Below, piece by piece: positions 3,343 to 15,175 of a DNA stretch of 28,375 nucleotides. The translations under genes and the position numbers were made by a program. This stretch comes from a virus. Its lineage: Duplodnaviria > Caudoviricetes. The notes beneath the pieces are model-generated. The model was given only the letters and a program-made list of their open reading frames with translations. It did not search any database and had not been told where the DNA came from. Positions within the stretch are counted from its first letter, which is position 1. Each line of letters opens with the position of its first letter. The stretch lies in IMG/VR virus record IMGVR_UViG_3300020043_002178, positions 1-28,375 of that record; one strand, given 5' to 3'.

Positions 3343-3698
3343 AAATACTTATACCAGCGATATTAGATAATTACTCACCCAGAAAGGATAATACCTTTAG
3401 TGTTAAGTTTCTTACACAGGAGTTAAGTAATGAGCAATTATTGAATATTAACTCGGCTAGGGATAAGTTTGGGATATTGTATTTCAAAGCTGAATCTGAT
3501 ATAACAAACGAAGAACTAGAAAAGCTTGATGAGGTTGATATTGATATAACCGACAAAAGCAAAACACCATCTAAAAGGATTAGAAGCGTATTGTTCCGTA
3601 ACTGGCAGCAAGACAATAAAGGCTTTACAGAGTTCAAAAATTTTTATATATTTGAAACAGAAAGGATTATCGAACACTATAAAAGTAAATTGGAGTAA
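3339..3698 (+). CDS. hypothetical phage protein upstream of terS
   Basis: ORF track; ATGA and TAATG overlaps with its neighbours. Confidence 0.65.
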   Translation: MKILIPAILDNYSPRKDNTFSVKFLTQELSNEQLLNINSARDKFGILYFKAESDITNEELEKLDEVDIDITDKSKTPSKRIRSVLFRNWQQDNKGFTEFKNFYIFETERIIEHYKSKLE

Positions 3699-4102
3699 TG
3701 GCTAAACATAAATACATAGAATCACCTGAAAAGTTTTGGGACTTATTTGTTGAGTTTAGAGAATTAAAATTATCTCAAAAGATTAAGCAACAAGTAACAT
3801 CGAGAGCAGGAGTAGAAACATTAGAACATACACCACCTCTTACATGGGCAGGGTTTGATGCTTGGTTATATGAGAAGAAAGTTATTACAGATACAGGTGA
3901 TTATAGAACTAATGAGAAGGGGAAATATGACGAATTTTCGGAGGTCATACGCGCAATAACCAATATAATGTACACTCAAAAGTTTGAAGGTGCGAGCGTT
4001 GGCGTGTTTAACGCTAACATTATAGCGCGTGATTTAGGACTTAAAGACAGCACAGAAACAAATCTAAAAGTGGAGCAACCATTGTTTCCAGAAAATAAGT
4101 AG
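3698..4102 (+). CDS. terS: terminase small subunit (P22 gp3-like)
   Basis: PLTWAGF...QKFEGASVGVFNANIIARDLGL, typical of gp3-like packaging proteins; position upstream of terL. Confidence 0.85.
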   Translation: MAKHKYIESPEKFWDLFVEFRELKLSQKIKQQVTSRAGVETLEHTPPLTWAGFDAWLYEKKVITDTGDYRTNEKGKYDEFSEVIRAITNIMYTQKFEGASVGVFNANIIARDLGLKDSTETNLKVEQPLFPENK

Positions 4103-4125: not shown

Positions 4126-4133
4126 TATATTTG
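4126..4133 (+). promoter_or_regulatory. possible -7 promoter element (TATATTTG) for the HNH gene
   Basis: TAnnTTTG in the terS-HNH gap, 3 nt before ATG 4137. No clear -33 element. Confidence 0.4.
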
Positions 4134-4136
4134 ATT

Positions 4137-4643
4137 ATGGAAAAAAGTATAATTGGATATGAAGGACTTTACACGGTATCAGATACTGGAGTAGTAAAAT
4201 CAACTCCTAGAAAAGGAACAAAAGGAGGTGAAATAAAAGTAATCAAAGATGAATACTATGAAGTAGTGTTGTGTAAAGACATGAAAATGAAAAGATTTAA
4301 TCTTCATAGATTAATAGCTACAGCATTTATTCCGAATCCTGAAAACAAACCACAAGTAAACCATATTAATGGTGATAAATACGATAACAGGATTGAAAAC
4401 TTAGAATGGTGTAATAATTCAGAAAACCAATTACATAGTTACAGAATAGGATTAAGAAAAAGCGTAAGAGGTGAAAAAAATGGCAACGCAAAACTAACAG
4501 ATAAACAAGTTGTTGAAATATATTCAATAATAAAAAGTAGAGGTAAGAACTACGGTAGAAAAGAATTAGCGTTAAAGTATAGCGTGTCTGAATGCACAAT
4601 AAAGGAAATAGCGACAAACAGAAGATACACATCTCATGTTTAG
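4137..4643 (+). CDS. free-standing HNH homing endonuclease (NUMOD4 + HNH + C-terminal HTH-like)
   Basis: IIGYEGLYTVSDTGVVKS (NUMOD4), LHRLIATAFIPNPENKPQVNHINGDKYDNRIENLEW (HNH), GEKNGNAKLT...ELALKYSVS. ATG 4137 is preferred over TTG 4131. Confidence 0.9.
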   Translation: MEKSIIGYEGLYTVSDTGVVKSTPRKGTKGGEIKVIKDEYYEVVLCKDMKMKRFNLHRLIATAFIPNPENKPQVNHINGDKYDNRIENLEWCNNSENQLHSYRIGLRKSVRGEKNGNAKLTDKQVVEIYSIIKSRGKNYGRKELALKYSVSECTIKEIATNRRYTSHV

Positions 4644-5847
4644 AAGAACTACAACAATAGATAAAATTCTGCGGATACAAGCCCGAAAAAAAGTAATACA
4701 GGGCGGTACTTCCGCAGGAATGTAAGCCCCTTTGTGAAAATGAAGGGGCAAAGGAAAAACTTTTGGTATATTGCCTATCTTAATAGATAAGGCTTGCAAA
4801 ACGCCAAACTTAGAAATATCTGTTGTATCTGAAACAATACCACATTTAAGAAGAGGTGCGCTAAAAGACTTCCTTAAAATAATGGTTTGGACTAATAGGT
4901 ATATTGACTCTCATTACAATAAATCACTTTTAACATATCGTTTTGCTAATGGTTCTTACATCGAGTTCTTTAGTGCTGAACAAGAAGAGAAGCTAAGAGG
5001 TGCAAGAAGAAATATTTTGTACATAAATGAGTGCAACAACCTTCCATTTGAAGCATACCACCAACTAGCAATAAGAACAAGCCACGATATTTATTTAGAC
5101 TTTAACCCTACAAATGAGTTTTGGGCGCATACCGAAGTATTGAATGAACCCGATAGCGAACATTTAATAGTTACGTATATGGATAATGAGGCTTTGCCAC
5201 CAAACGTAATAGGAGAAATGGAGGTGGCAAAGAAAAAAGCTGAAACATCTGATTATTGGCGTAATTGGTGGAGAGTGTATGGCTTAGGCTTGATAGGCAC
5301 ATTAGACGGCGTAATATTTCCAGATATTAATTTAGTAGATGAATTTCCAAAGGATTGTAAATGGATAGCTTATGGTCAAGATTTCGGATTTACAAACGAC
5401 CCGTCTGCATTAATTAAAGTAGGTTTTGTAAATGGTGAATTGTGGCTACAAGAAATGATTTACGCTAAAGGCTTAACAAATCAAGATTTAAGTAAGAAGT
5501 ATAAGGAAGTTGGACTAGTTCCTTTAGATGAGATTTACGCGGATAGTGCCGAGCCTAAAAGCATCGAAGAGTTAAAGCGTGAAGGGTGGAGGAACATAAA
5601 GCCAACGCTTAAAGGTAAAGATAGCGTAAATACAGGGATAGGATTAATGCAAAGCCATAAAATAAACATCACTAAGGATAGCGTTAATTTAATTAAAGAA
5701 TTTAGGAATTACCAATGGGAGAAAGATAATGACGGGAAAACTACTAATAAACCTATTGACGACTACAATCACGGAATAGATGCGATTCGTTATGTATGCC
5801 TTATGAAAATATTGAAGAAAAAAAGTTCTGTTGTTAGTTCCTTATAA
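4636..5847 (+). CDS. terL: terminase large subunit (PBSX-like), interrupted by a 36-nt insert in Walker A; 391 aa if the insert is skipped
   Basis: ATG 4636 gives MFRRTTTIDKILRIQARKKVIQGGTSAG, in frame with KTFGILPILIDK from 4756. Walker B ILYINE, DFNP, and nuclease motifs GQDFGFTNDP, DSAEP, NHGIDAIRY are intact. Confidence 0.9.
4717..4755 (+). other. candidate programmed translational bypass element (GGA take-off 4717-4719, GGA landing 4753-4755, 36-nt gap)
   Basis: GGA ATG TAA GCC CCT TTG TGA AAA TGA AGG GGC AAA GGA; hairpin 4726-4749; AGGAA direct repeats at 4716-4720 and 4752-4756. The interruption is directly visible; the mechanism is inferred. Confidence 0.65.
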
Positions 5848-6801: not shown

Positions 6802-6992
6802 GCAAACTATCATGGCAAATAGAATCGTACAAAATAGCGGAGAAAGGGATATACAACAAGGAAGGATTAACACCAATAGAAAGCGTTAAACGAACAAATA
6901 TCTATGAAATAATGCTTTATACCTCGTTAATGATTGCAGAAGGCACACTACAAGGAGAAAGAATGGAACTAGAATATAAAAAGAAAAAATGA
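6705..6992 (+). CDS. gpT-like extension reached by -1 frameshift (fusion about 315 aa)
   Basis: The ORF at 6684..6992 has only a weak TTG start just before the T-run; its stop overlaps the next ATG (ATGA 6989). Confidence 0.6.
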   Translation, partial: YSFQLEIVKRFSNIFKGGKQPIKTGSTSERIVSKLSWQIESYKIAEKGIYNKEGLTPIESVKRTNIYEIMLYTSLMIAEGTLQGERMELEYKKKK

Positions 6993-7696
6993 TACCGAAA
7001 ATATTAGTAGCCGCCCCGACATCGAACCTTAAAGACTATTGTTTTGATGAGTATGCCGAGCAAGTGAGAAACTTCACCTATCCGCATTACGATATTTTGC
7101 TAGTAGATAATAGCCAAGATAAAAAGTATCATCATAAGATTTTAGAGGCTGGCATTAGATGTATATACCACAAACCGAAAGGAAGCCCGATTGAGTATAT
7201 CACAGAGTGCCAAAACATCATTAGAGGGGTAGCAATAGAAGGCGGCTATGATTATGTGTTGATGTTAGAAAGTGATGTGTTTGTACCTAGAAACATTATT
7301 GAACATATGCTTTGCGGTGGTGCAGAAGTGTACACTATCACATATCTAATCACTAAGAAAGGAAAACACAGCGTTTGTTTACATGGTATGCCTACCAATG
7401 AACTAAGAACCTCAACAAAGGTACTAGAGGAAGATGTAAGCGCGGCCGTTTGGACTGGTGAAATAAAAGATATTAAGCAATTTAAGATAGGCGAAGATTT
7501 TAGACTGTATGGAACAGGGATAGGTTGCACGCTTTTTAAAACATCTGTACTAAAAGAAATACCATTTAGAATCGATAAACAATTTCCTGCTGCATTTTCA
7601 GATTCATATTGGTATTTGGACGCTGAACGAGCAGGAATAAAAACAATTTTAGACACTTCAATAATAGCAACACATAAATCATTTAAAATAAAATAG
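6989..7696 (+). CDS. GT-A fold glycosyltransferase-like protein (family 2-like)
   Basis: ILLVDNS, YDYVLMLESDV, GIGCTL, FSDSYW. Confidence 0.7.
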   Translation: MIPKILVAAPTSNLKDYCFDEYAEQVRNFTYPHYDILLVDNSQDKKYHHKILEAGIRCIYHKPKGSPIEYITECQNIIRGVAIEGGYDYVLMLESDVFVPRNIIEHMLCGGAEVYTITYLITKKGKHSVCLHGMPTNELRTSTKVLEEDVSAAVWTGEIKDIKQFKIGEDFRLYGTGIGCTLFKTSVLKEIPFRIDKQFPAAFSDSYWYLDAERAGIKTILDTSIIATHKSFKIK

Positions 7697-7697
7697 T

Positions 7698-8171
7698 ATG
7701 CAAGACAAAACGAGCGCCCAAACATTAATCGATGTTAAGAATCAAATCCAAACACTAGAAAATAGGATAGTGTTTTTAGATAGTTATTGTAAAACATTGT
7801 TAGAAGCATCACAAAAAGAAGGGCTTTCAGATGTAGAAAGATGTGAACTTTTAGATAAACACTATAAATTTAGCATTGAAAGACAATCTAAAATCGATTT
7901 GTTACAAAACAAAAAGCAAACAGAGTACTTGCACGAAGAAATGAGCCGTAGAAATGCGGAGCTAAAGTACATGAGCGCTAATATGGCCGCAATGGTTAAA
8001 GCTGTTAGAAACGCTCCAATGACATTAGAAAACAGCAAACTACGCGGCGGAATAATTGATAGATTTAGCAAAGGATACGCTAAAATAGAAGAGCAACGCA
8101 ACGACTTTAAATTGCTCGGTGCTATCATTAACGAAAGCAAAATTGAATTCACGCCTGTAACGCCTGAGTAA
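7698..8171 (+). CDS. hypothetical alpha-helical/coiled-coil protein
   Basis: ORF track; no enzyme motif seen. Confidence 0.65.
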   Translation: MQDKTSAQTLIDVKNQIQTLENRIVFLDSYCKTLLEASQKEGLSDVERCELLDKHYKFSIERQSKIDLLQNKKQTEYLHEEMSRRNAELKYMSANMAAMVKAVRNAPMTLENSKLRGGIIDRFSKGYAKIEEQRNDFKLLGAIINESKIEFTPVTPE

Positions 8172-8722
8172 TGAACATTTGGTACAACATACCGTGGAGC
8201 AATTCAAAGGATTTAGGAAAGGCGTATAATGATTTCATGCGCTTAATTCCTAATGATGATTACGCTTGTTTTATCGACCGTGACGCAATGTTCTTAACGC
8301 CTTTTTTCGGAAAGCAACTAAGCGATATTGTAAACGCTAATAAAGACTGCGGTATATTTGTGGCTAAAGCGAACCGTATAGGCTGCCAATGGCAAAGAGA
8401 GCCTAAAATGTGGGACGAACTAGATATGGGCAAACACATACAGAAAGCAACCGAACTATTTACTACTAAATACGATGAGTGTACGGAAGTATCAACCCCT
8501 CCGATTGGTGGTAATTATCTAGGTGGCTTTCTTATGTTGGTATCAAAAAAGGTTTGGGATAAAGTAGGCGGATTTAAAGAGGGCATCGGTATGTTGGGAG
8601 TAGATAATGAATTGCATTATGCAGCACAAAGACACAACGAAAAGATATTATTAATGAATGGCGTTTACCTTTATCACTGGTACAGGGGAGGAAAAGCCGA
8701 AAGAAAAGAACACTTACTATGA
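8171..8722 (+). CDS. GT-A fold glycosyltransferase-like protein
   Basis: LGKAYN, CFIDRDAMF (DxD), GFLMLVSKKVWDKVGGF, GVDNE, YLYHWY. Confidence 0.7.
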   Translation: MNIWYNIPWSNSKDLGKAYNDFMRLIPNDDYACFIDRDAMFLTPFFGKQLSDIVNANKDCGIFVAKANRIGCQWQREPKMWDELDMGKHIQKATELFTTKYDECTEVSTPPIGGNYLGGFLMLVSKKVWDKVGGFKEGIGMLGVDNELHYAAQRHNEKILLMNGVYLYHWYRGGKAERKEHLL

Positions 8723-9489
8723 AATATATCGTAATTGCACACACTAAAGACTACCACGAAAAGGCAAAGCAGTATCTATACTCTTTGAATAAATACGCAA
8801 AAGACATTAAGATAAGAATTTTGTGCATTGACTTCATGCCCGACAAAAAAGAAGATTGGATAGAATATGCAACCTGCCAATTAACACAACTTCCTTCGTT
8901 CCGTAGAGGTTGGCCACACAATAGAAAGTTTTATGTATGCTTAGAAGGCGGTGATTTTCTACCTTATTTTAAATGGAATGATGATGATGTGATTATACAC
9001 ACAGACAGCGATATGCTTTTGCAACGTCCTTTCGATATTGACGAATTAACTGCACTTGATAATCTACAAACGGGTGAAATTGGCGCGAGTAAATCGGGCT
9101 ATAAATTAACGCTACGTGAGGAATATTGGAGATTGAAGCCTAAAGCTGGCAACGTGTACGCAAAACAATTCTTTCCTGATGGGTGGCTAGAGGAAATGTA
9201 TTGCGCTGGCATCATAGTGGGTCGTGTTGATACGTATAGAATGTTAAGCAAATTCTACCTAGAAAAGATTGATTTAATGATGCACCTATTCGACCACCAC
9301 GCGGCAGGCCAATGGATATTTAACCAAGCTATTCACACAGAATTACAATTGGTTGATTTAACTAGCGTGTTTCATTGTGCGGATTGGTTTATAGATATTA
9401 AGACCGAAAAGAAAGAAGGTAAACTGTACTATAATAACTCAATGTGTTTATTTAACCATACTAAATTTGAAGGAGAATGGACGGTGTAA
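8719..9489 (+). CDS. putative glycosyltransferase (DxD)
   Basis: IIHTDSDML (DxD), YCAGIIVG, QWIFN and late NH; cluster context. Confidence 0.55.
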   Translation: MKYIVIAHTKDYHEKAKQYLYSLNKYAKDIKIRILCIDFMPDKKEDWIEYATCQLTQLPSFRRGWPHNRKFYVCLEGGDFLPYFKWNDDDVIIHTDSDMLLQRPFDIDELTALDNLQTGEIGASKSGYKLTLREEYWRLKPKAGNVYAKQFFPDGWLEEMYCAGIIVGRVDTYRMLSKFYLEKIDLMMHLFDHHAAGQWIFNQAIHTELQLVDLTSVFHCADWFIDIKTEKKEGKLYYNNSMCLFNHTKFEGEWTV

Positions 9490-10145
9490 AAAAAATATGT
9501 TATACCGCTATATTTGGCGAGTATGACGATTTAAAAGAGCCTAAGGTAATTACTGAAGGCTGGGAGTATGTTTGTTTTACAAATAGTCCAAATCTTAAAA
9601 GCAGTATTTGGAATATTGTACAATATAACCCACAAGAAAAGCCACAAAACAAAAGAGAACATTCGTTGATAGCGCGTTTTCTAAAAATTAACCCACATTC
9701 ACAATTTGGCAAAGAAAATGTGTTATCTGTTTGGGTTGATGGTTCGATAGAAATTAACTGTAACCTAGATGAATTTGTAAATAAATACAAAGGCCGCGCT
9801 TTAACTATAATGAAGCACCCAACGCGAAATTGTGTATATCAAGAAGCTAATGCTTGTATTGGACTTAAAAAAGATGATGAAGGCATTATAATATCGCAAA
9901 TGGCAAACTATAAGCACTTGTATATGCCTGAACACGTTGGAATGGTTGCAAGCGGTGTAATTATTAGAAACCACAATGAAGATGTTAATTCATTCTGCGA
10001 AAAGTGGTGGGCGCAGGTTAATAGATTCAGTATTCGCGACCAGCTTTCTTTCAACTTTGTTGCGTGGATTAGCGATTTCAAATATACCGTTATGCCTTTC
10101 GATATACTTCGCAACGAAATGAGAATTAAAAAACATTTGAAATGA
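9477..10145 (+). CDS. DUF616/TOD1-MUCI70-like glycosyltransferase
   Basis: CYTAIFGEYDDLKEP, ARFLKINPH, WVDGS, KHPTRNCVYQEA, RDQLSFNFVAW. Confidence 0.75.
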   Translation: MDGVKKICYTAIFGEYDDLKEPKVITEGWEYVCFTNSPNLKSSIWNIVQYNPQEKPQNKREHSLIARFLKINPHSQFGKENVLSVWVDGSIEINCNLDEFVNKYKGRALTIMKHPTRNCVYQEANACIGLKKDDEGIIISQMANYKHLYMPEHVGMVASGVIIRNHNEDVNSFCEKWWAQVNRFSIRDQLSFNFVAWISDFKYTVMPFDILRNEMRIKKHLK

Positions 10146-10882
10146 TTACAGGAATAACCAATATAATCTTTAGTAAAAACAGAGCGATGCAGTTGCACGC
10201 GTTACTTGAAACTATTTTAGTACGGTGTAATATATTTGAAAACAATGTTGTTATTTACACACATGATGAAATTTACGCTAAATCTTATGATTTACTCATA
10301 GATAGATTTCCTAAAGTTACTTGGGTTAAAGAAACTATCTTAAAGGAAAACATATTACAAGCAATGAAAACGCAATACACTTGCTTTATGTGTGATGATG
10401 ATATTATTTTTGATGGTTTTATAGGTGATGTTACTATGTGCGATAAAACATTTTGTTATTCGCTAAGGCTAGGACATAACGTAAGCAATAACATAGGGCA
10501 GCAATGGAACTGGAGGCAAACTAAAACAGCGCATTACAACTATGCTTTCTCTACCGATGGGCATATTTATTCAACCGATGTAATTAAACCAATGGTTAGC
10601 AATATTCGCTTTGATAATCCAAATGTATTTGAATCGGCAATGTTTAAACACGCCGATAGTTTCCCACCTTTGATGAGGTCGCCTGAATTATCTGTTTTAA
10701 CTTCGTTTAGTGTTAATCGTGTAAGCGATAAGTCACATTGCGCCACATCTAACCAGTACAGAGAAAACGAATTACACACAATGTACTTAGAGGGCTATTT
10801 AATTGACTGGCATAATATGGATATGACGGGAGTAGATAGACCGATTTACGAAGAGTACGAATTAAAATTTAAACTATGCTAA
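10142..10882 (+). CDS. putative GT-A glycosyltransferase
   Basis: IIFSKNRAMQL...FMCDDDIIF, SLRLG, STDGHIY. Confidence 0.6.
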   Translation: MITGITNIIFSKNRAMQLHALLETILVRCNIFENNVVIYTHDEIYAKSYDLLIDRFPKVTWVKETILKENILQAMKTQYTCFMCDDDIIFDGFIGDVTMCDKTFCYSLRLGHNVSNNIGQQWNWRQTKTAHYNYAFSTDGHIYSTDVIKPMVSNIRFDNPNVFESAMFKHADSFPPLMRSPELSVLTSFSVNRVSDKSHCATSNQYRENELHTMYLEGYLIDWHNMDMTGVDRPIYEEYELKFKLC

Positions 10883-11460
10883 TAGACATTAAAACCATCA
10901 AAGACATTAAAGGCGTTATTCATGTAGGCGCTTTTATGGGTGAAGAGAAAAAGATATATGATGAAATGGGATTGCCTGTAATATGGGTAGAGGCGCAAAA
11001 GGATTTGTGTGATAGGCTTATTTCAAGGGGTGATCGTGTAATAAATGCAGCTGTTTCTGATAAAGAGTTTGAAACTACATTAAAGATTAGCAGCAACGGA
11101 GCATCTACATCTATTTTAGACTTTGGAACTCACGCTGACAAATACCCAAATATAACGGTAGAGAAAGAAATTAAAATAACAACTACGACACTCGAAACAA
11201 TTATCGATGAAAACGAAATTGATTTAAGTAAATTCAACTTTATTAATATAGATATTGAGGGACACGGTTTAGCGGCTTTAAGAGGATTAGGCGAATATGT
11301 TAGCGCGTTTAAGTACTTATACATGGAGGTGTACAAAGACGAATTATACAAGGGATGCGATATTTTCGGCGACTTAGAAAAAGAATTCCCACAATATAAA
11401 TTACAAGAAACCGCATTTACTGGCAGGGGCTGGGGCGATGCACTATACATTAAGAAATGA
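10876..11460 (+). CDS. FkbM-family methyltransferase
   Basis: VIHVGAFMGEE, WVEA, NAAVSD, NIDIEG, YLYMEV, WGDALY. Confidence 0.85.
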   Translation: MLIDIKTIKDIKGVIHVGAFMGEEKKIYDEMGLPVIWVEAQKDLCDRLISRGDRVINAAVSDKEFETTLKISSNGASTSILDFGTHADKYPNITVEKEIKITTTTLETIIDENEIDLSKFNFINIDIEGHGLAALRGLGEYVSAFKYLYMEVYKDELYKGCDIFGDLEKEFPQYKLQETAFTGRGWGDALYIKK

Positions 11461-12359
11461 AAATACTAATTACAGGTGGCGCAGGTTACAAAGGATGCTT
11501 GCTCACACAGGAGTTATTAAACAAAGGTAATGAAGTTACTGTATTAGATAACTTCATGTATGGACACAGTTCAATAATGCCTTACCTATCAAATCCAAAC
11601 TTTAAAGCTATAAGTAAGGACATTCGTACGATTAACGAAAGTGATTTAAAGGAGTATGATGTTATTTATCATTTGGCAGGAATTAGCGGATATCCAGCTT
11701 GTGAGGCGAACCCGAATAGCGCGCACATGATTAATGTAGAAAGCACAAAGAAAATAGTTGATTTATTGGGTAAAGAACAGAAACTAATTTATGCTTCTAC
11801 AACATCATTTTACGGAAAGGCTGGGGTTGAATGTGATGAACAAAGCGAATGCAGCCCAGTCAGCACTTACGGAGTAACCAAACTACAAGCGGAAGAAATA
11901 TGTATGCAGAAAGAAAATGCTTTAGCGTTACGATTTGCAACTATCTTTGGAGTTACTCAAAGAATGCGCCCCGATTTATTACTAAACGATTTTGTGTATC
12001 GCGCGATGTACGAAAGAACGCTAGTATTATTTGATAGTGCAAGCAAAAGGACATTTATACACGTTAAAGATGCTATTAAAAGTTATACCGATTTCACTCA
12101 CTTAAAAGGGGTTTACAATGTGGGTAGCAATGATATGAATTTTAGTAAGCGTGAATTGGCCGACATGGTTGCTAAACACATTAACTTCGAGATTATAGAG
12201 GCGTCAACACCCGACAAAGATAAGCGCGACTTCATTATAAACTTCGACAAAATAGAGAAAGAAGGTTTTAAAATTACCGTATCAATGGATGAAGGTATCA
12301 AAGAATTGATTAAATTGTACTCATTCTATAACCCATACCCAGTTTATGCAAAGATTTGA
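11457..12359 (+). CDS. NAD-dependent NDP-sugar epimerase/dehydratase (extended SDR)
   Basis: ITGGAGYKG, HLAG, YAST, YGVTK (YxxxK), RTFIHVKD. Confidence 0.9.
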   Translation: MKILITGGAGYKGCLLTQELLNKGNEVTVLDNFMYGHSSIMPYLSNPNFKAISKDIRTINESDLKEYDVIYHLAGISGYPACEANPNSAHMINVESTKKIVDLLGKEQKLIYASTTSFYGKAGVECDEQSECSPVSTYGVTKLQAEEICMQKENALALRFATIFGVTQRMRPDLLLNDFVYRAMYERTLVLFDSASKRTFIHVKDAIKSYTDFTHLKGVYNVGSNDMNFSKRELADMVAKHINFEIIEASTPDKDKRDFIINFDKIEKEGFKITVSMDEGIKELIKLYSFYNPYPVYAKI

Positions 12360-12735
12360 AGAACATGGAATATTACTAGCAATTGCTAGTATTTCAGAGC
12401 CAATTAACGAAGGTACGCAGTTTATAACCTCTAACCACCATGATATACAGGTAGGAACATGGAAGTATGAAGCAGGAAAAAAGCTAAACAGCCACTACCA
12501 TAAAGACAATGAGCGCAGCATAACGCGCACGCAGGAATTTATCTACATTAAGAAAGGCAAAATAAAATGCCTTGTTTATGGTTTGGATTCCATTTTAATT
12601 AATAGTTTTGTTTTGAGTGAGGGTGATTACGCTACATTCTTTAATGGTGGTCACGGTTACGAATTCATAGAAGATAGCGAGGTTATAGAGGTTAAATGTG
12701 GAGAGTTTAATTATGATGATAAAGTAAGGATATGA
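12346..12735 (+). CDS. cupin-fold protein (sugar isomerase/WbuC-like)
   Basis: HYH...TQEFIYIKKG and GGHGYEF...EVKCG cupin motifs. Confidence 0.7.
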   Translation: MQRFEEHGILLAIASISEPINEGTQFITSNHHDIQVGTWKYEAGKKLNSHYHKDNERSITRTQEFIYIKKGKIKCLVYGLDSILINSFVLSEGDYATFFNGGHGYEFIEDSEVIEVKCGEFNYDDKVRI

Positions 12736-13256
12736 GTTTAAAGTTACATCTTGGCTGCGGCAAAAGAAAAATAGAAGGATTTATTCATATTGATAATGAT
12801 TCATACCCTCATCTAGACTATTGCAGAGATATTCGCGATTTATCTATATTTCCTGATAATAGCGTTGATTTAATCTATTCATCACACGCTTTTGAATATT
12901 TCAATAATCCTGCTGAAGTATTAACGGAATGGAAAAGAGTGTTAAAAGAAGGTGGCAAATTAAGGCTTTCAGTTCCCGACTTTGCACAACTTGTAAAAGT
13001 GTATCGTAAAACTGATGATATAAGTAAAGTTAAAGGCGCTTTATACGGACATTGGGGAGATAAACAACACTTCACTTGTTACGATAAAAGAAGTTTAGGT
13101 ATGTTGCTATGGGATGCAGGATTTAGTGCAATTGAAGAATGGGACTGGAGATTAACGGAGCATTGCAATGTAGATGACTATTCGCAGGCTTATTTCCCTC
13201 ACATGGATAAAGAAAATGGAATTCAAATAAGTTTAAACATACAAGCAATTAAGTAA
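12732..13256 (+). CDS. class I SAM methyltransferase
   Basis: LHLGCG, FPDNSVDLIYSSHAFEY, WKRVLKEGGKLRLSVPD. Confidence 0.85.
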   Translation: MSLKLHLGCGKRKIEGFIHIDNDSYPHLDYCRDIRDLSIFPDNSVDLIYSSHAFEYFNNPAEVLTEWKRVLKEGGKLRLSVPDFAQLVKVYRKTDDISKVKGALYGHWGDKQHFTCYDKRSLGMLLWDAGFSAIEEWDWRLTEHCNVDDYSQAYFPHMDKENGIQISLNIQAIK

Positions 13257-13966
13257 TGGAGCAAAAGAAAATTGAATACCCATTAGGACAAGGACGCTAT
13301 GAACGCCCCGAAATTCAAATGTGTAAAGATAAAGGTTACGACATTAAAGACCCACGCGATGCTATAAGTATCTTTGAAAAGAAGATTGCCGAGTTTACAG
13401 GCGCAAAGTACGCGGTGGCAGTTGATAATCTAACAGATGGGTTATTTTTATGTTTAGGCGTACTAAATAAGCTATTAGACCCTATTATAATTCCAAATAG
13501 AACGTATTGCAGCGTACCAATGACAATACTTAACGCTGGCTACGGATTACAACTTAAAGATATTGCGTGGAGTGGAATGTACCAATTAACACCAATGCCT
13601 ATTTGGGATTGTGCCGTTTCCTTTAAAAAAGATATGTATAAAGAAGGGCAGTTAATGGTGCTTTCATTTCAACACAAGAAAAGGCTTTGTATTGGTAAAG
13701 GCGGTATGATTCTTACTGACCATGAGGGATATTATAAATGGCTTATTGCAGCACGTTACGAAGGGCGTAATTTAGATGTTAACCAGTGGGACGATGAATA
13801 TTCAATGATTGGATGGAATATGTACATGAGTCCTGACGATGCGGCAAGAGGAATATTAATCTTTGATGATTTAATAGAAAACAACACAAAATGGGAAGAT
13901 TGGGCAGGAAGTGAAAACTATCCCGATTTAAGTACAAAAAAAATATTCCAAAAATATGCTTCATAA
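13256..13966 (+). CDS. DegT/DnrJ/EryC1/StrS-family sugar aminotransferase (short form)
   Basis: FEKKIAEFTGAKYAVAV, TYCSVP, SFQHKK (PLP-lysine region), GKGGMILTD, GWNMYM. Confidence 0.85.
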   Translation: MEQKKIEYPLGQGRYERPEIQMCKDKGYDIKDPRDAISIFEKKIAEFTGAKYAVAVDNLTDGLFLCLGVLNKLLDPIIIPNRTYCSVPMTILNAGYGLQLKDIAWSGMYQLTPMPIWDCAVSFKKDMYKEGQLMVLSFQHKKRLCIGKGGMILTDHEGYYKWLIAARYEGRNLDVNQWDDEYSMIGWNMYMSPDDAARGILIFDDLIENNTKWEDWAGSENYPDLSTKKIFQKYAS

Positions 13967-14591
13967 AATTATTGAACACCTAGAAAAAGGAGAAAATTTC
14001 AGCTTTAGCCGATTTGGGGACGGTGAGTGGGCGTGTCTGTTAGGTAAGAACGGGGCAAACTGTGACGGGCACGCTTATTTTCACGATATGGGCGATAGGC
14101 TTTTAAAGATTGTAGAAAGTAATCCTAAGTACTACATGGGATTGCAGACACTAGCCGAAAACACTTACCCCGATGAGATAGCTAAGTATCCTATTGAATG
14201 GGTCGAAAGCGATTGTTTACATAGAGCAAGCATAAGAGGGGAAATACAGCCTTTCTTTGATGTGTTAAACAAAAAGAATATTGTATTTGTAGGCAACCAC
14301 AGACACCAAAAACAAAGCATCATTAAGGTAGATAAATTTATTGAAGTGCCTATAAATGATTGTTGGAGAAAGTATAAAGATGTATTAGAAGAAATACGAA
14401 CTAGCATTGATAAAGACGATGTAATAATCTATTGCGCGTCAATGATGGCAAATGTGCTTATTGATGATATTTACAATGAGTTTGGCAATACTGTTACTCA
14501 AATAGATTGCGGCAGCTTATTCGAGCCTTACATGGGAATATCAATTAGAAGTTATCACAGTAAATTAATTCAAAAACTAAAACAGAAATAA
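13956..14591 (+). CDS. GT-D fold (DUF1792-like) glycosyltransferase
   Basis: SFSRFGDGE at the N-terminus and QIDCGSLF near the C-terminus. Confidence 0.75.
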   Translation: MLHKIIEHLEKGENFSFSRFGDGEWACLLGKNGANCDGHAYFHDMGDRLLKIVESNPKYYMGLQTLAENTYPDEIAKYPIEWVESDCLHRASIRGEIQPFFDVLNKKNIVFVGNHRHQKQSIIKVDKFIEVPINDCWRKYKDVLEEIRTSIDKDDVIIYCASMMANVLIDDIYNEFGNTVTQIDCGSLFEPYMGISIRSYHSKLIQKLKQK

Positions 14592-15175
14592 TGACAAGAG
14601 CAACGATTTTAAACAGCCTAATTAAGAAGTTTGGATATAAAACCTTTTTAGAGATTGGCGTGAATAACGGGATTAATTTTGAATCAATCAATGCAGAATA
14701 CAAGGTAGGCGTTGACCCTGACCCCAAAAGCCCAGCGACATTAAAAATAACTAGCGACAAGTTTTTTGAAACTAACAATCAAAAGTTTGATTTGATTTTT
14801 GTTGATGGCTTACATCATGCCGACCAAGTGTACAAAGATATTTTAAACTCTTTGGATTTCTTAGAAGATGGCGGCGCAATATTAGTTCACGACTGCAACC
14901 CATTAACAGAAGCTAGTCAAGTTGTGCCACGTATGCAAACCTATTGGCATGGTGACGTTTGGAAAGCATGGGTAAAATTACGCACCGAAAGAAGTGATTT
15001 ATCAATGTTTGTAATAGATACAGATTGCGGTTGCGGACTTATTACCAAAGACTCTCAAAACAAATTAGTTACGTCTGAAGAAATTAATTATAAAAATCTT
15101 GAAAAGCATAGAGAAAATTGGTTAAATTTGAAAACAAAAGAATATTATATCGAATGGTTAGAAAAATCAAAATAA
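14591..15175 (+). CDS. class I SAM methyltransferase (Methyltransf_24-like)
   Basis: FLEIGVNNG, GVDP, FDLIFVDGLH, GGAILVHD. Confidence 0.85.
   Translation: MTRATILNSLIKKFGYKTFLEIGVNNGINFESINAEYKVGVDPDPKSPATLKITSDKFFETNNQKFDLIFVDGLHHADQVYKDILNSLDFLEDGGAILVHDCNPLTEASQVVPRMQTYWHGDVWKAWVKLRTERSDLSMFVIDTDCGCGLITKDSQNKLVTSEEINYKNLEKHRENWLNLKTKEYYIEWLEKSK

Follow-up and report, generated by a model that had tools for sequence, protein, structure and literature searches.

A hairpin-filled gap in the Walker A motif of a phage terminase gene, a candidate mobile element for programmed ribosomal bypass

The interrupted terminase gene

We analysed a 28,375-nt stretch of DNA from a 28-kb virus record, referred to here as the window, in which the small terminase gene terS, a NUMOD4-HNH endonuclease gene and the terminase gene terL follow one another in that order on the plus strand. 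terS (positions 3698–4102; 134 aa; Pfam GP3_package, E 1.9e-8) is the upstream flank of the cassette. The free-standing endonuclease gene (4131–4643; 170 aa; Pfam HNH_3, E 2.1e-11, with NUMOD4) overlaps the start of terL. terL itself comes in two parts: the first (4636–4719) has 28 codons, which match the N-termini of uninterrupted relatives and end in GGTSAG; the second (4756–5847; Pfam Terminase_3 and Terminase_3C) comprises 363 codons, begins with the Walker A lysine and reaches the stop codon at 5845–5847. Between them lies a gap of 36 nt (4720–4755), ATG TAA GCC CCT TTG TGA AAA TGA AGG GGC AAA GGA, after which KTFGILP resumes in the same frame. An earlier reading of the letters (hereafter the sequence-only reading) had proposed that a GGA...GGA insert splits the Walker A motif, that it holds three in-frame stop codons, and that rejoining at the second GGA gives a terminase of 391 aa; letters and translation agree on the split, the three stops are present in the insert, and 28 + 363 codons do give 391. 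Its remark that the ORF called from TTG 4771 is devoid of the P-loop is also true.

The predicted take-off codon, GGA (Gly28, 4717–4719), was assigned from the sequence and the family geometry. It is followed by a 6-nt spacer, the sense codon ATG and then the stop TAA (4720–4725), and by a 10-bp hairpin (4726–4749) with a C-rich 5′ arm, a GAAA loop (4736–4739) and a G-rich 3′ arm containing a Shine-Dalgarno-like GGGG run (4745–4748). The final three nucleotides of the gap are the predicted landing triplet, GGA (4753–4755), supported by the sequence and by the register test given below; a single tRNA can read both GGA triplets. The hairpin has a folding energy of −16.1 kcal/mol (z −4.3), which none of 200 shuffled sequences equalled, and is the sole CCCC...GGGG hairpin of its kind in the window. 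Neither this hairpin, which starts 6 nt past the take-off codon, nor the NUMOD4-HNH gene overlapping the terL start had figured in the sequence-only reading. Two other ways of rejoining the window gene were rejected: a take-off placed at the stop, one codon later, would remove or misplace the catalytic lysine, and excision of a 32-nt GT...AG intron yields GGTSAGMKT. No tRNA gene was found in the window.

A 114-nt contig from a public run, X1, spans 4705–4818 gap-free with 4 differing letters, so that the whole insert is present in it; this contig extends 15 nt 5′ of the insert, against a bridging rule of 31 nt, and X1 is possibly related to the source sample. Another contig of the same run holds an insert-free terL relative. 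RNA run X21 and DNA run X11 had no match to 4560–4960, and runs X2, X4 and X9 did not cover the insert; these negatives count neither for nor against it. Elsewhere in the window, the stretch that separates terL from the structural genes (6989–15175) holds about 14 genes which, judged by eye, resemble glycosyltransferases, methyltransferases, an NAD-dependent epimerase and an aminotransferase.

A family of hairpin-filled gaps and its gene context

Firstly, the 80 closest IMG/VR terL relatives (51–63% identity) were compared at this site. The contiguous GGTSAGKT that the sequence-only reading had expected of homologues is found in 74 of them, and the other six carry an insert at the Walker A site, as it had suggested some phages might. 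Secondly, two pattern scans for QGGTS...KT(F/Y) with 24–54 extra bases, in which no hairpin was demanded, produced 160 loci and 77 distinct interrupted terL junctions, 76 of which contain a hairpin made of a C-arm and a G-arm. Removed from these scans were 41 of 166 pattern matches, which are not terL, 7 distinct junctions that proved to be intact P-loops with a second KT, and one locus of 30% identity without hairpin (L188). Thirdly, a hairpin-based scan enlarged this terL family 1 to at least 83 distinct inserts, located at three adjacent codons, after the loop Ser (10), Ala (50) or Gly/Ser (23). Other P-loop types, GGAIRGGKT and GGAAGGGKS, make up terL families 2–3 and carry the element at at least 20 junctions, collected with the hairpin required and the codon match not required.

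The element also occurs in motif B of the family B DNA polymerase (PolB; Pfam DNA_pol_B) of large phages. Among 56 PolB loci gathered by protein similarity alone, 36 have an insert (28 distinct), 17 are insert-free and three (L847, L863, L830) could not be scored, leaving 53 scorable; the inserts (L814–L869) sit at Ala, Leu, Val, Ser and Tyr codons, mostly 33–48 codons from the start. The family then comprises at least 131 distinct junctions with gaps of 32–50 nt, some of which are near-identical; its members are related, and the counts and p-values given here overstate their independence. On these comparisons the window insert is one member of a large family and not a lone case. Hairpin-only scans returned mostly terminators or chance matches, which were discarded, and terL and PolB were the only host genes that inspection by eye recognised in them. 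Four loci (L487, L493, L497, L548) contain long, almost perfect palindromes with a CCCCT...GAAA...AGGGG hairpin at their centre; these are distinct from the element. We found no description of the hairpin-gap family in the literature searched, which took in few subscription journals.

The gaps share a simple anatomy. In all 131 junctions the C-run begins 5–7 nt 3′ of an in-frame codon and the C-arm precedes the G-arm; junction classes were set by this codon-to-hairpin distance, the codon match serving as an independent check. The gaps fold stably (median z −4.1; z below −2 in 128 of 131), frequently with GNRA or UUCG loops, and in 118 of 131 the G-run ends 5–9 nt before the landing triplet, the spacer being A/U-rich. 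Not one of the 131 can be read through in frame, each having a stop or a frame shift. The codon directly after take-off is a stop in 17 of 131, and the following one in 74; A-site codons are otherwise mostly nominally common NNU sense codons. Eight amino acids are represented at take-off (A 57, S 24, G 14, L 13, Y 8, R 8, I 5, V 2). Take-off and landing triplets are identical at codon position 1 in 123 junctions, at position 2 in 116 and at position 3 in 24, as against 33 and 18 of 131 for the flanking offsets. The GGA identity of the two codons, to which the sequence-only reading had pointed, varies within the family; the match at positions 1–2 is conserved. The AUG between take-off GGA and stop, in which it saw the sign of a possible variant mechanism, is incidental: it is present in 1 of 83 family-1 inserts, and the idea of a functional role was dropped. 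What is conserved is the positions 1–2 codon match, the 5–7-nt spacer and the hairpin.

We assessed the register by deleting a stretch as long as the gap at every possible starting point and asking whether the conserved motif was rebuilt. All 131 motifs were rebuilt solely when the cut fell right after the take-off codon (offset 3); the other offsets rebuilt 129 (offset 2), 115 (offset 1), 110 (offset 0) and 32 (offset 4) of 131, offsets 3 and 2 being distinguished by just two junctions. The landing triplet is TAA in L814 and L860 and GTN in 12 cases with an Ala take-off; hence, it is not decoded. The 15 position-2 mismatches (C>T in 14, A>G in one) all retain a G-U pair with the anticodon. 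Position-1 mismatches are eight in number. Six are Tyr take-offs (L825, L828, L829, L837, L844, L866), whose landing triplets AAC, AGC or GAC match only at positions 2–3; the other two, L214 (TCG>GCA) and L331 (GCG>ATA), match poorly at their ends and could represent defective alleles, errors in the sequence or cases of unmatched landing. A C occupies position 3 in 6 of these 8, compared with 2 of the 123 others, as a G34 tRNA-Tyr would need. In five Tyr cases a TA dinucleotide lies earlier in the spacer, where landing would give the wrong product, and simple scanning leaves these cases unexplained. Across the family, earlier matching dinucleotides in the 3′ spacer are depleted (6 of 131 versus 15.7 ± 3.5 in the control); for Gly take-offs, GGG triplets are also present inside the G-arm. 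Reading of both triplets by one tRNA under ordinary wobble fails for many pairs (ATT>ATA, NNC>NNA, TAT>TAA, as well as TCC>TCA and GCN>GTN), and the idea that pairing is in every case better at landing than at take-off was abandoned, being broken by ATT>ATA. At six loci (L481, L508, L527, L556, L504, L606) the end match covers two codons with a stop directly after the second (ATT CGT TAR versus ATA CGN; CGA GGT TAG versus CGT GGT), so that take-off would be possible at either codon with the product unchanged; solely in these two subgroups is take-off one codon later feasible.

Relaxed selection on the rest of terL, which by the sequence-only reading would have spoken against its proposal, was not seen. 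The median dN/dS is 0.054 for 220 carrier pairs and 0.051 for 148 insert-free pairs (900 nt after the Walker A lysine, ungapped Nei-Gojobori, pairs above 85% amino-acid identity), the window terL having no close partner for this comparison (62% at best). In contigs aligned to the window terL, carriers and insert-free genes not being distinguished, 32 of 38 differences among the matches listed (40 of 146) fall at third positions. In a quick tree built with IQ-TREE from 87 C-terminal parts, carriers are interleaved with insert-free genes (16 changes versus 27 with shuffled labels), and strong branches force at least 12 insert changes. The locus L033 illustrates the layout: it is 92% identical to the insert-free L020 in terS and from the landing codon onward, and between those flanks L033 alone has the HNH gene, a 5′ terL segment 82% alike to that of L020, and the insert. 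L221 and L046 are arranged likewise, the similarity of their flanks being 84% and 91%.

An HNH homologue lies directly upstream of terL in 18 of 70 carriers versus 1 of 62 insert-free genes (p 4e-5, a value that overstates the case because the loci are related), and is absent from the other 52 carriers; with Pfam run on 64 of the 132 upstream ORFs, 16 of the 18 homologues belong to HNH_3. In three loci (L085, L088, L207) the upstream gene has a weak LEM-3 GIY-YIG match in place of HNH, which suggests nuclease exchange in the cassette. Beside PolB, an opposite-strand DUF7487 or GIY-YIG gene accompanies 13 of 28 carriers and none of 12 insert-free loci: DUF7487 in 12 (two under the curated cut-off), GIY-YIG in one. 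The DUF7487 gene (L815, L816, L828, L838, L842, L843, L845, L851, L856, L864, L866, L868) is divergent, just upstream of PolB and confined to carriers, measures 254–389 aa where complete, and might, as a guess, be a homing nuclease of an unnamed family. A phage-encoded IF3 gene was also observed directly upstream of the PolB C-terminal gene (L814:1772–2287), and likewise in L820, L821, L824, L826, L827, L829 and L849, carriers and non-carriers among them. From its position and its carrier association, the NUMOD4-HNH gene at the terL start of the window is likely part of the element and the predicted mobiliser of the insert. Our verdict is that the 36 nt are a real, selected and mobile coding gap.

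The window phage likely has a Bacteroidota host. The closest cultured terL among the matches listed (best 40 of 1209) belongs to Flavobacterium psychrophilum phages (52.6%), and the P-loop of phage FpV9, the one cultured record checked at the DNA level, is contiguous there. A GTDB scan gave two carriers among the matches listed (120), L261 and L331, both on short contigs within Bacteroidota MAGs, which as evidence for the host is weak; one of 401 Bacteroidota genomes sampled matched the pattern, had no hairpin and looks like chance.

Bypass and its alternatives

Since the insert stands in essential genes of many related phages under selection, a ribosomal jump is its most likely explanation, and we regard programmed bypass by P-site tRNA re-pairing, within a homing-nuclease cassette, as probable. 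In the window, the peptidyl-tRNA-Gly would release GGA 4717–4719, the ribosome would pass the hairpin at 4726–4749 without decoding it, the peptidyl-tRNA would re-pair at GGA 4753–4755, and decoding would restart at the catalytic lysine to give the predicted 391-aa terminase. Re-pairing of the P-site tRNA predicts that an undecoded triplet copies the last decoded codon at positions 1–2. Such copying, seen for eight amino acids in two classes of gene, is hard to account for by polymerase slippage or known splicing. The sequence-only reading had advanced an independent bypass element; bypass stands as the best explanation of the comparative evidence, and the isolated case has given way to a large family.

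Several observations sit less easily with bypass. The A site holds a stop in only 17 of 131 junctions and mostly sense codons otherwise, the G-run of the window is merely 4 nt from the landing triplet, and two conserved bases, the T in fourth place of the gap and its final A, could be processing signals. Bacteroidota ribosomes make little use of Shine-Dalgarno pairing. The G-arm might act as a Shine-Dalgarno-like aid to landing; since the G-run doubles as a stem arm, we only infer this role, from the spacing and from what the cited parts of two T4 papers describe (10.1101/2022.08.31.505936, section 17; 10.1101/2024.12.09.627546). The trigger could be the hairpin's docking in the A site, by analogy with published docking hairpins: the stem-loops of dnaX and HIV dock there at 11–12 nt from the P-site codon, compared with a spacing of 6 nt here, and in the source as cited they cause pausing or −1 frameshifting and no hop (PMC7282821). 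They indicate that tRNA binding can be blocked whatever the A- and P-site codons.

An unlikely alternative is a protein-dependent micro-intron, in which a nuclease and a ligase of host or phage would recognise the hairpin and excise the 36 nt from the mRNA. In its favour, the architecture is fixed (C-run and G-run together span 24 nt in 59 of 131 junctions, gap base 4 is T in 124 and the last base is A in 97), and no A-site stop or rare codon would be needed. However, any of the four bases can open the gap (T 70, G 26, C 25, A 10), and the last triplet follows the preceding codon at positions 1–2 over eight amino acids, with changes in the wobble direction only; we know of no splicing system that demands this. 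Flank pairing is inconstant in the folds, by eye. Neither the catalytic core of group I or II introns nor the fixed splice-site structure of a bulge-helix-bulge is apparent: at 36 nt the insert is below the size of a group I or II core, its first base is free, and Rfam has no match in the window. Were the insert to leave the RNA after all, the micro-intron system would be of an unknown kind.

Bypass or, less likely, RNA excision would account for how the gene is read past the insert, and other readings are, even together, distinctly unlikely. One of them, very improbable in our view, is that an RNA or DNA polymerase skips the extruded hairpin by way of a short repeat, so that minority insert-free transcripts or genomes supply the terminase. 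The strong hairpin and the repeated ends, with AGGAA at both ends in the window, would suit this, and the sequence-only reading had named the AGGAA repeat as a route for deletion in DNA; the repeat is not conserved, though, being reduced across the family to 2 nt that are always codon positions 1–2, and the alternative is disfavoured. With the cut placed inside the repeat, the motif is lost at 21 (offset 0), 16 (offset 1) and 2 (offset 2) of the 131 junctions: Ala becomes Val, Tyr becomes Asn, or a TAA stop appears. In the closest pairs with and without insert, 5′ terL is about 80% alike compared with 91–92% in the downstream flanks, which argues that the insert-free genes are not simple deletion products.

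Also highly improbable are a dead allele (an alternative of the sequence-only reading), an assembly artefact, or a terminase made from two separate pieces or supplied by a helper: the contig is uncultured, no cultured carrier was found among the matches listed (best 40 of 1209, 60 of 280, 60 of 163 and 28 of 28), and L214 and L331 may be defective, but 83 distinct inserts at three adjacent terL codons, purifying selection on the carriers and the X1 contig with the insert speak against these readings, and the window has no second terL among its ORFs and no in-frame start near the Walker A lysine before TTG 4771.

Comparison with known bypass systems

To our knowledge, T4 gene 60 is the single well-studied natural family of efficient long-range bypass on bacterial ribosomes, and Streptomyces phage Hau3 offers one candidate with short gaps. 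In its proposed working the element comes closest to T4 gene 60 and the MobA cassette, yet misses several defining T4 features. In T4, 50 nt are bypassed, and the MobA cassette has homologues (Manning and Atkins, 10.1101/2022.08.31.505936). The matching ends are shared (GGA/GGA in the window, positions 1–2 in 123 and 116 of 131), as is the homing-endonuclease cassette, to judge from gene context. The T4 mini-Shine-Dalgarno is described as lying 5–7 nt before landing with an A/U-rich spacer, and the G-run here, 5–9 nt away in 118 of 131 and 4 nt in the window, may be its counterpart. The differences, as far as the cited parts of the T4 papers go, are these: the hairpin here lies wholly in the gap, whereas the 5′ arm of the T4 stem-loop includes the take-off codon; T4 has a stop directly after take-off, found here in 17 of 131 and replaced by AUG in the window; T4 take-off is at Gly or Asp, compared with eight amino acids; T4-like cases use pairs read by the same tRNA, often not so here, although it is so in the window; the T4 gene encodes a topoisomerase, while the genes here are hit at terL Walker A and PolB motif B; and T4 relies on a nascent-peptide signal, whereas the host genes here have unrelated N-termini. 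Gaps here span 32–50 nt, in any frame.

The Hau3 terminase resembles the window gene in having a bypass within a conserved terL motif and matched codons. Its gaps are 7–10 nt, with a rare UUA as trigger and signals proposed to lie 5′, and the junction peptide was detected by mass spectrometry in E. coli (PMC10732093). A hairpin-filled gap of 32–50 nt is not part of that case as described in the cited portion.

Mitochondrial byps have an internal hairpin. In Magnusiomyces capitatus mitochondria they are 27–55 nt long, mobile, and found at many sites and codons (PMC5009743; 10.1101/2022.08.31.505936). The likeness, on the parts of those sources cited, covers size, mobility, imperfect two-out-of-three matches and apparent independence of context. 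In contrast, an unused A-site codon and a mitochondrial ribosome operate there, and common sense codons in phage genes are involved here; bacterial ribosomes, homing-type nuclease genes and catalytic motifs are features of the present element.

If bypass is confirmed, the 131 natural variants would constitute a second bypass family, one in which eight amino acids serve at take-off and the geometry is simple and fixed, and would show that far fewer signals suffice than the T4 model suggests. Whether a hairpin alone triggers take-off, how many codon–anticodon pairs landing requires and where byps originated would become directly testable. In carrier phages, terL and polymerase genes are truncated by gene callers and hence look dead. 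We somewhat favour the broader reading that the element is a portable hairpin module of about 40 nt that may let bacterial ribosomes hop from almost any codon, with no stop, rare codon or special nascent peptide, and that would give homing nucleases, in addition to introns and inteins, a third means of residing without harm in catalytic motifs of essential phage genes. Such a module would be common in wild Bacteroidota-type phages (36 of the 53 scorable PolB loci) and would form the bacterial counterpart of mitochondrial byps.
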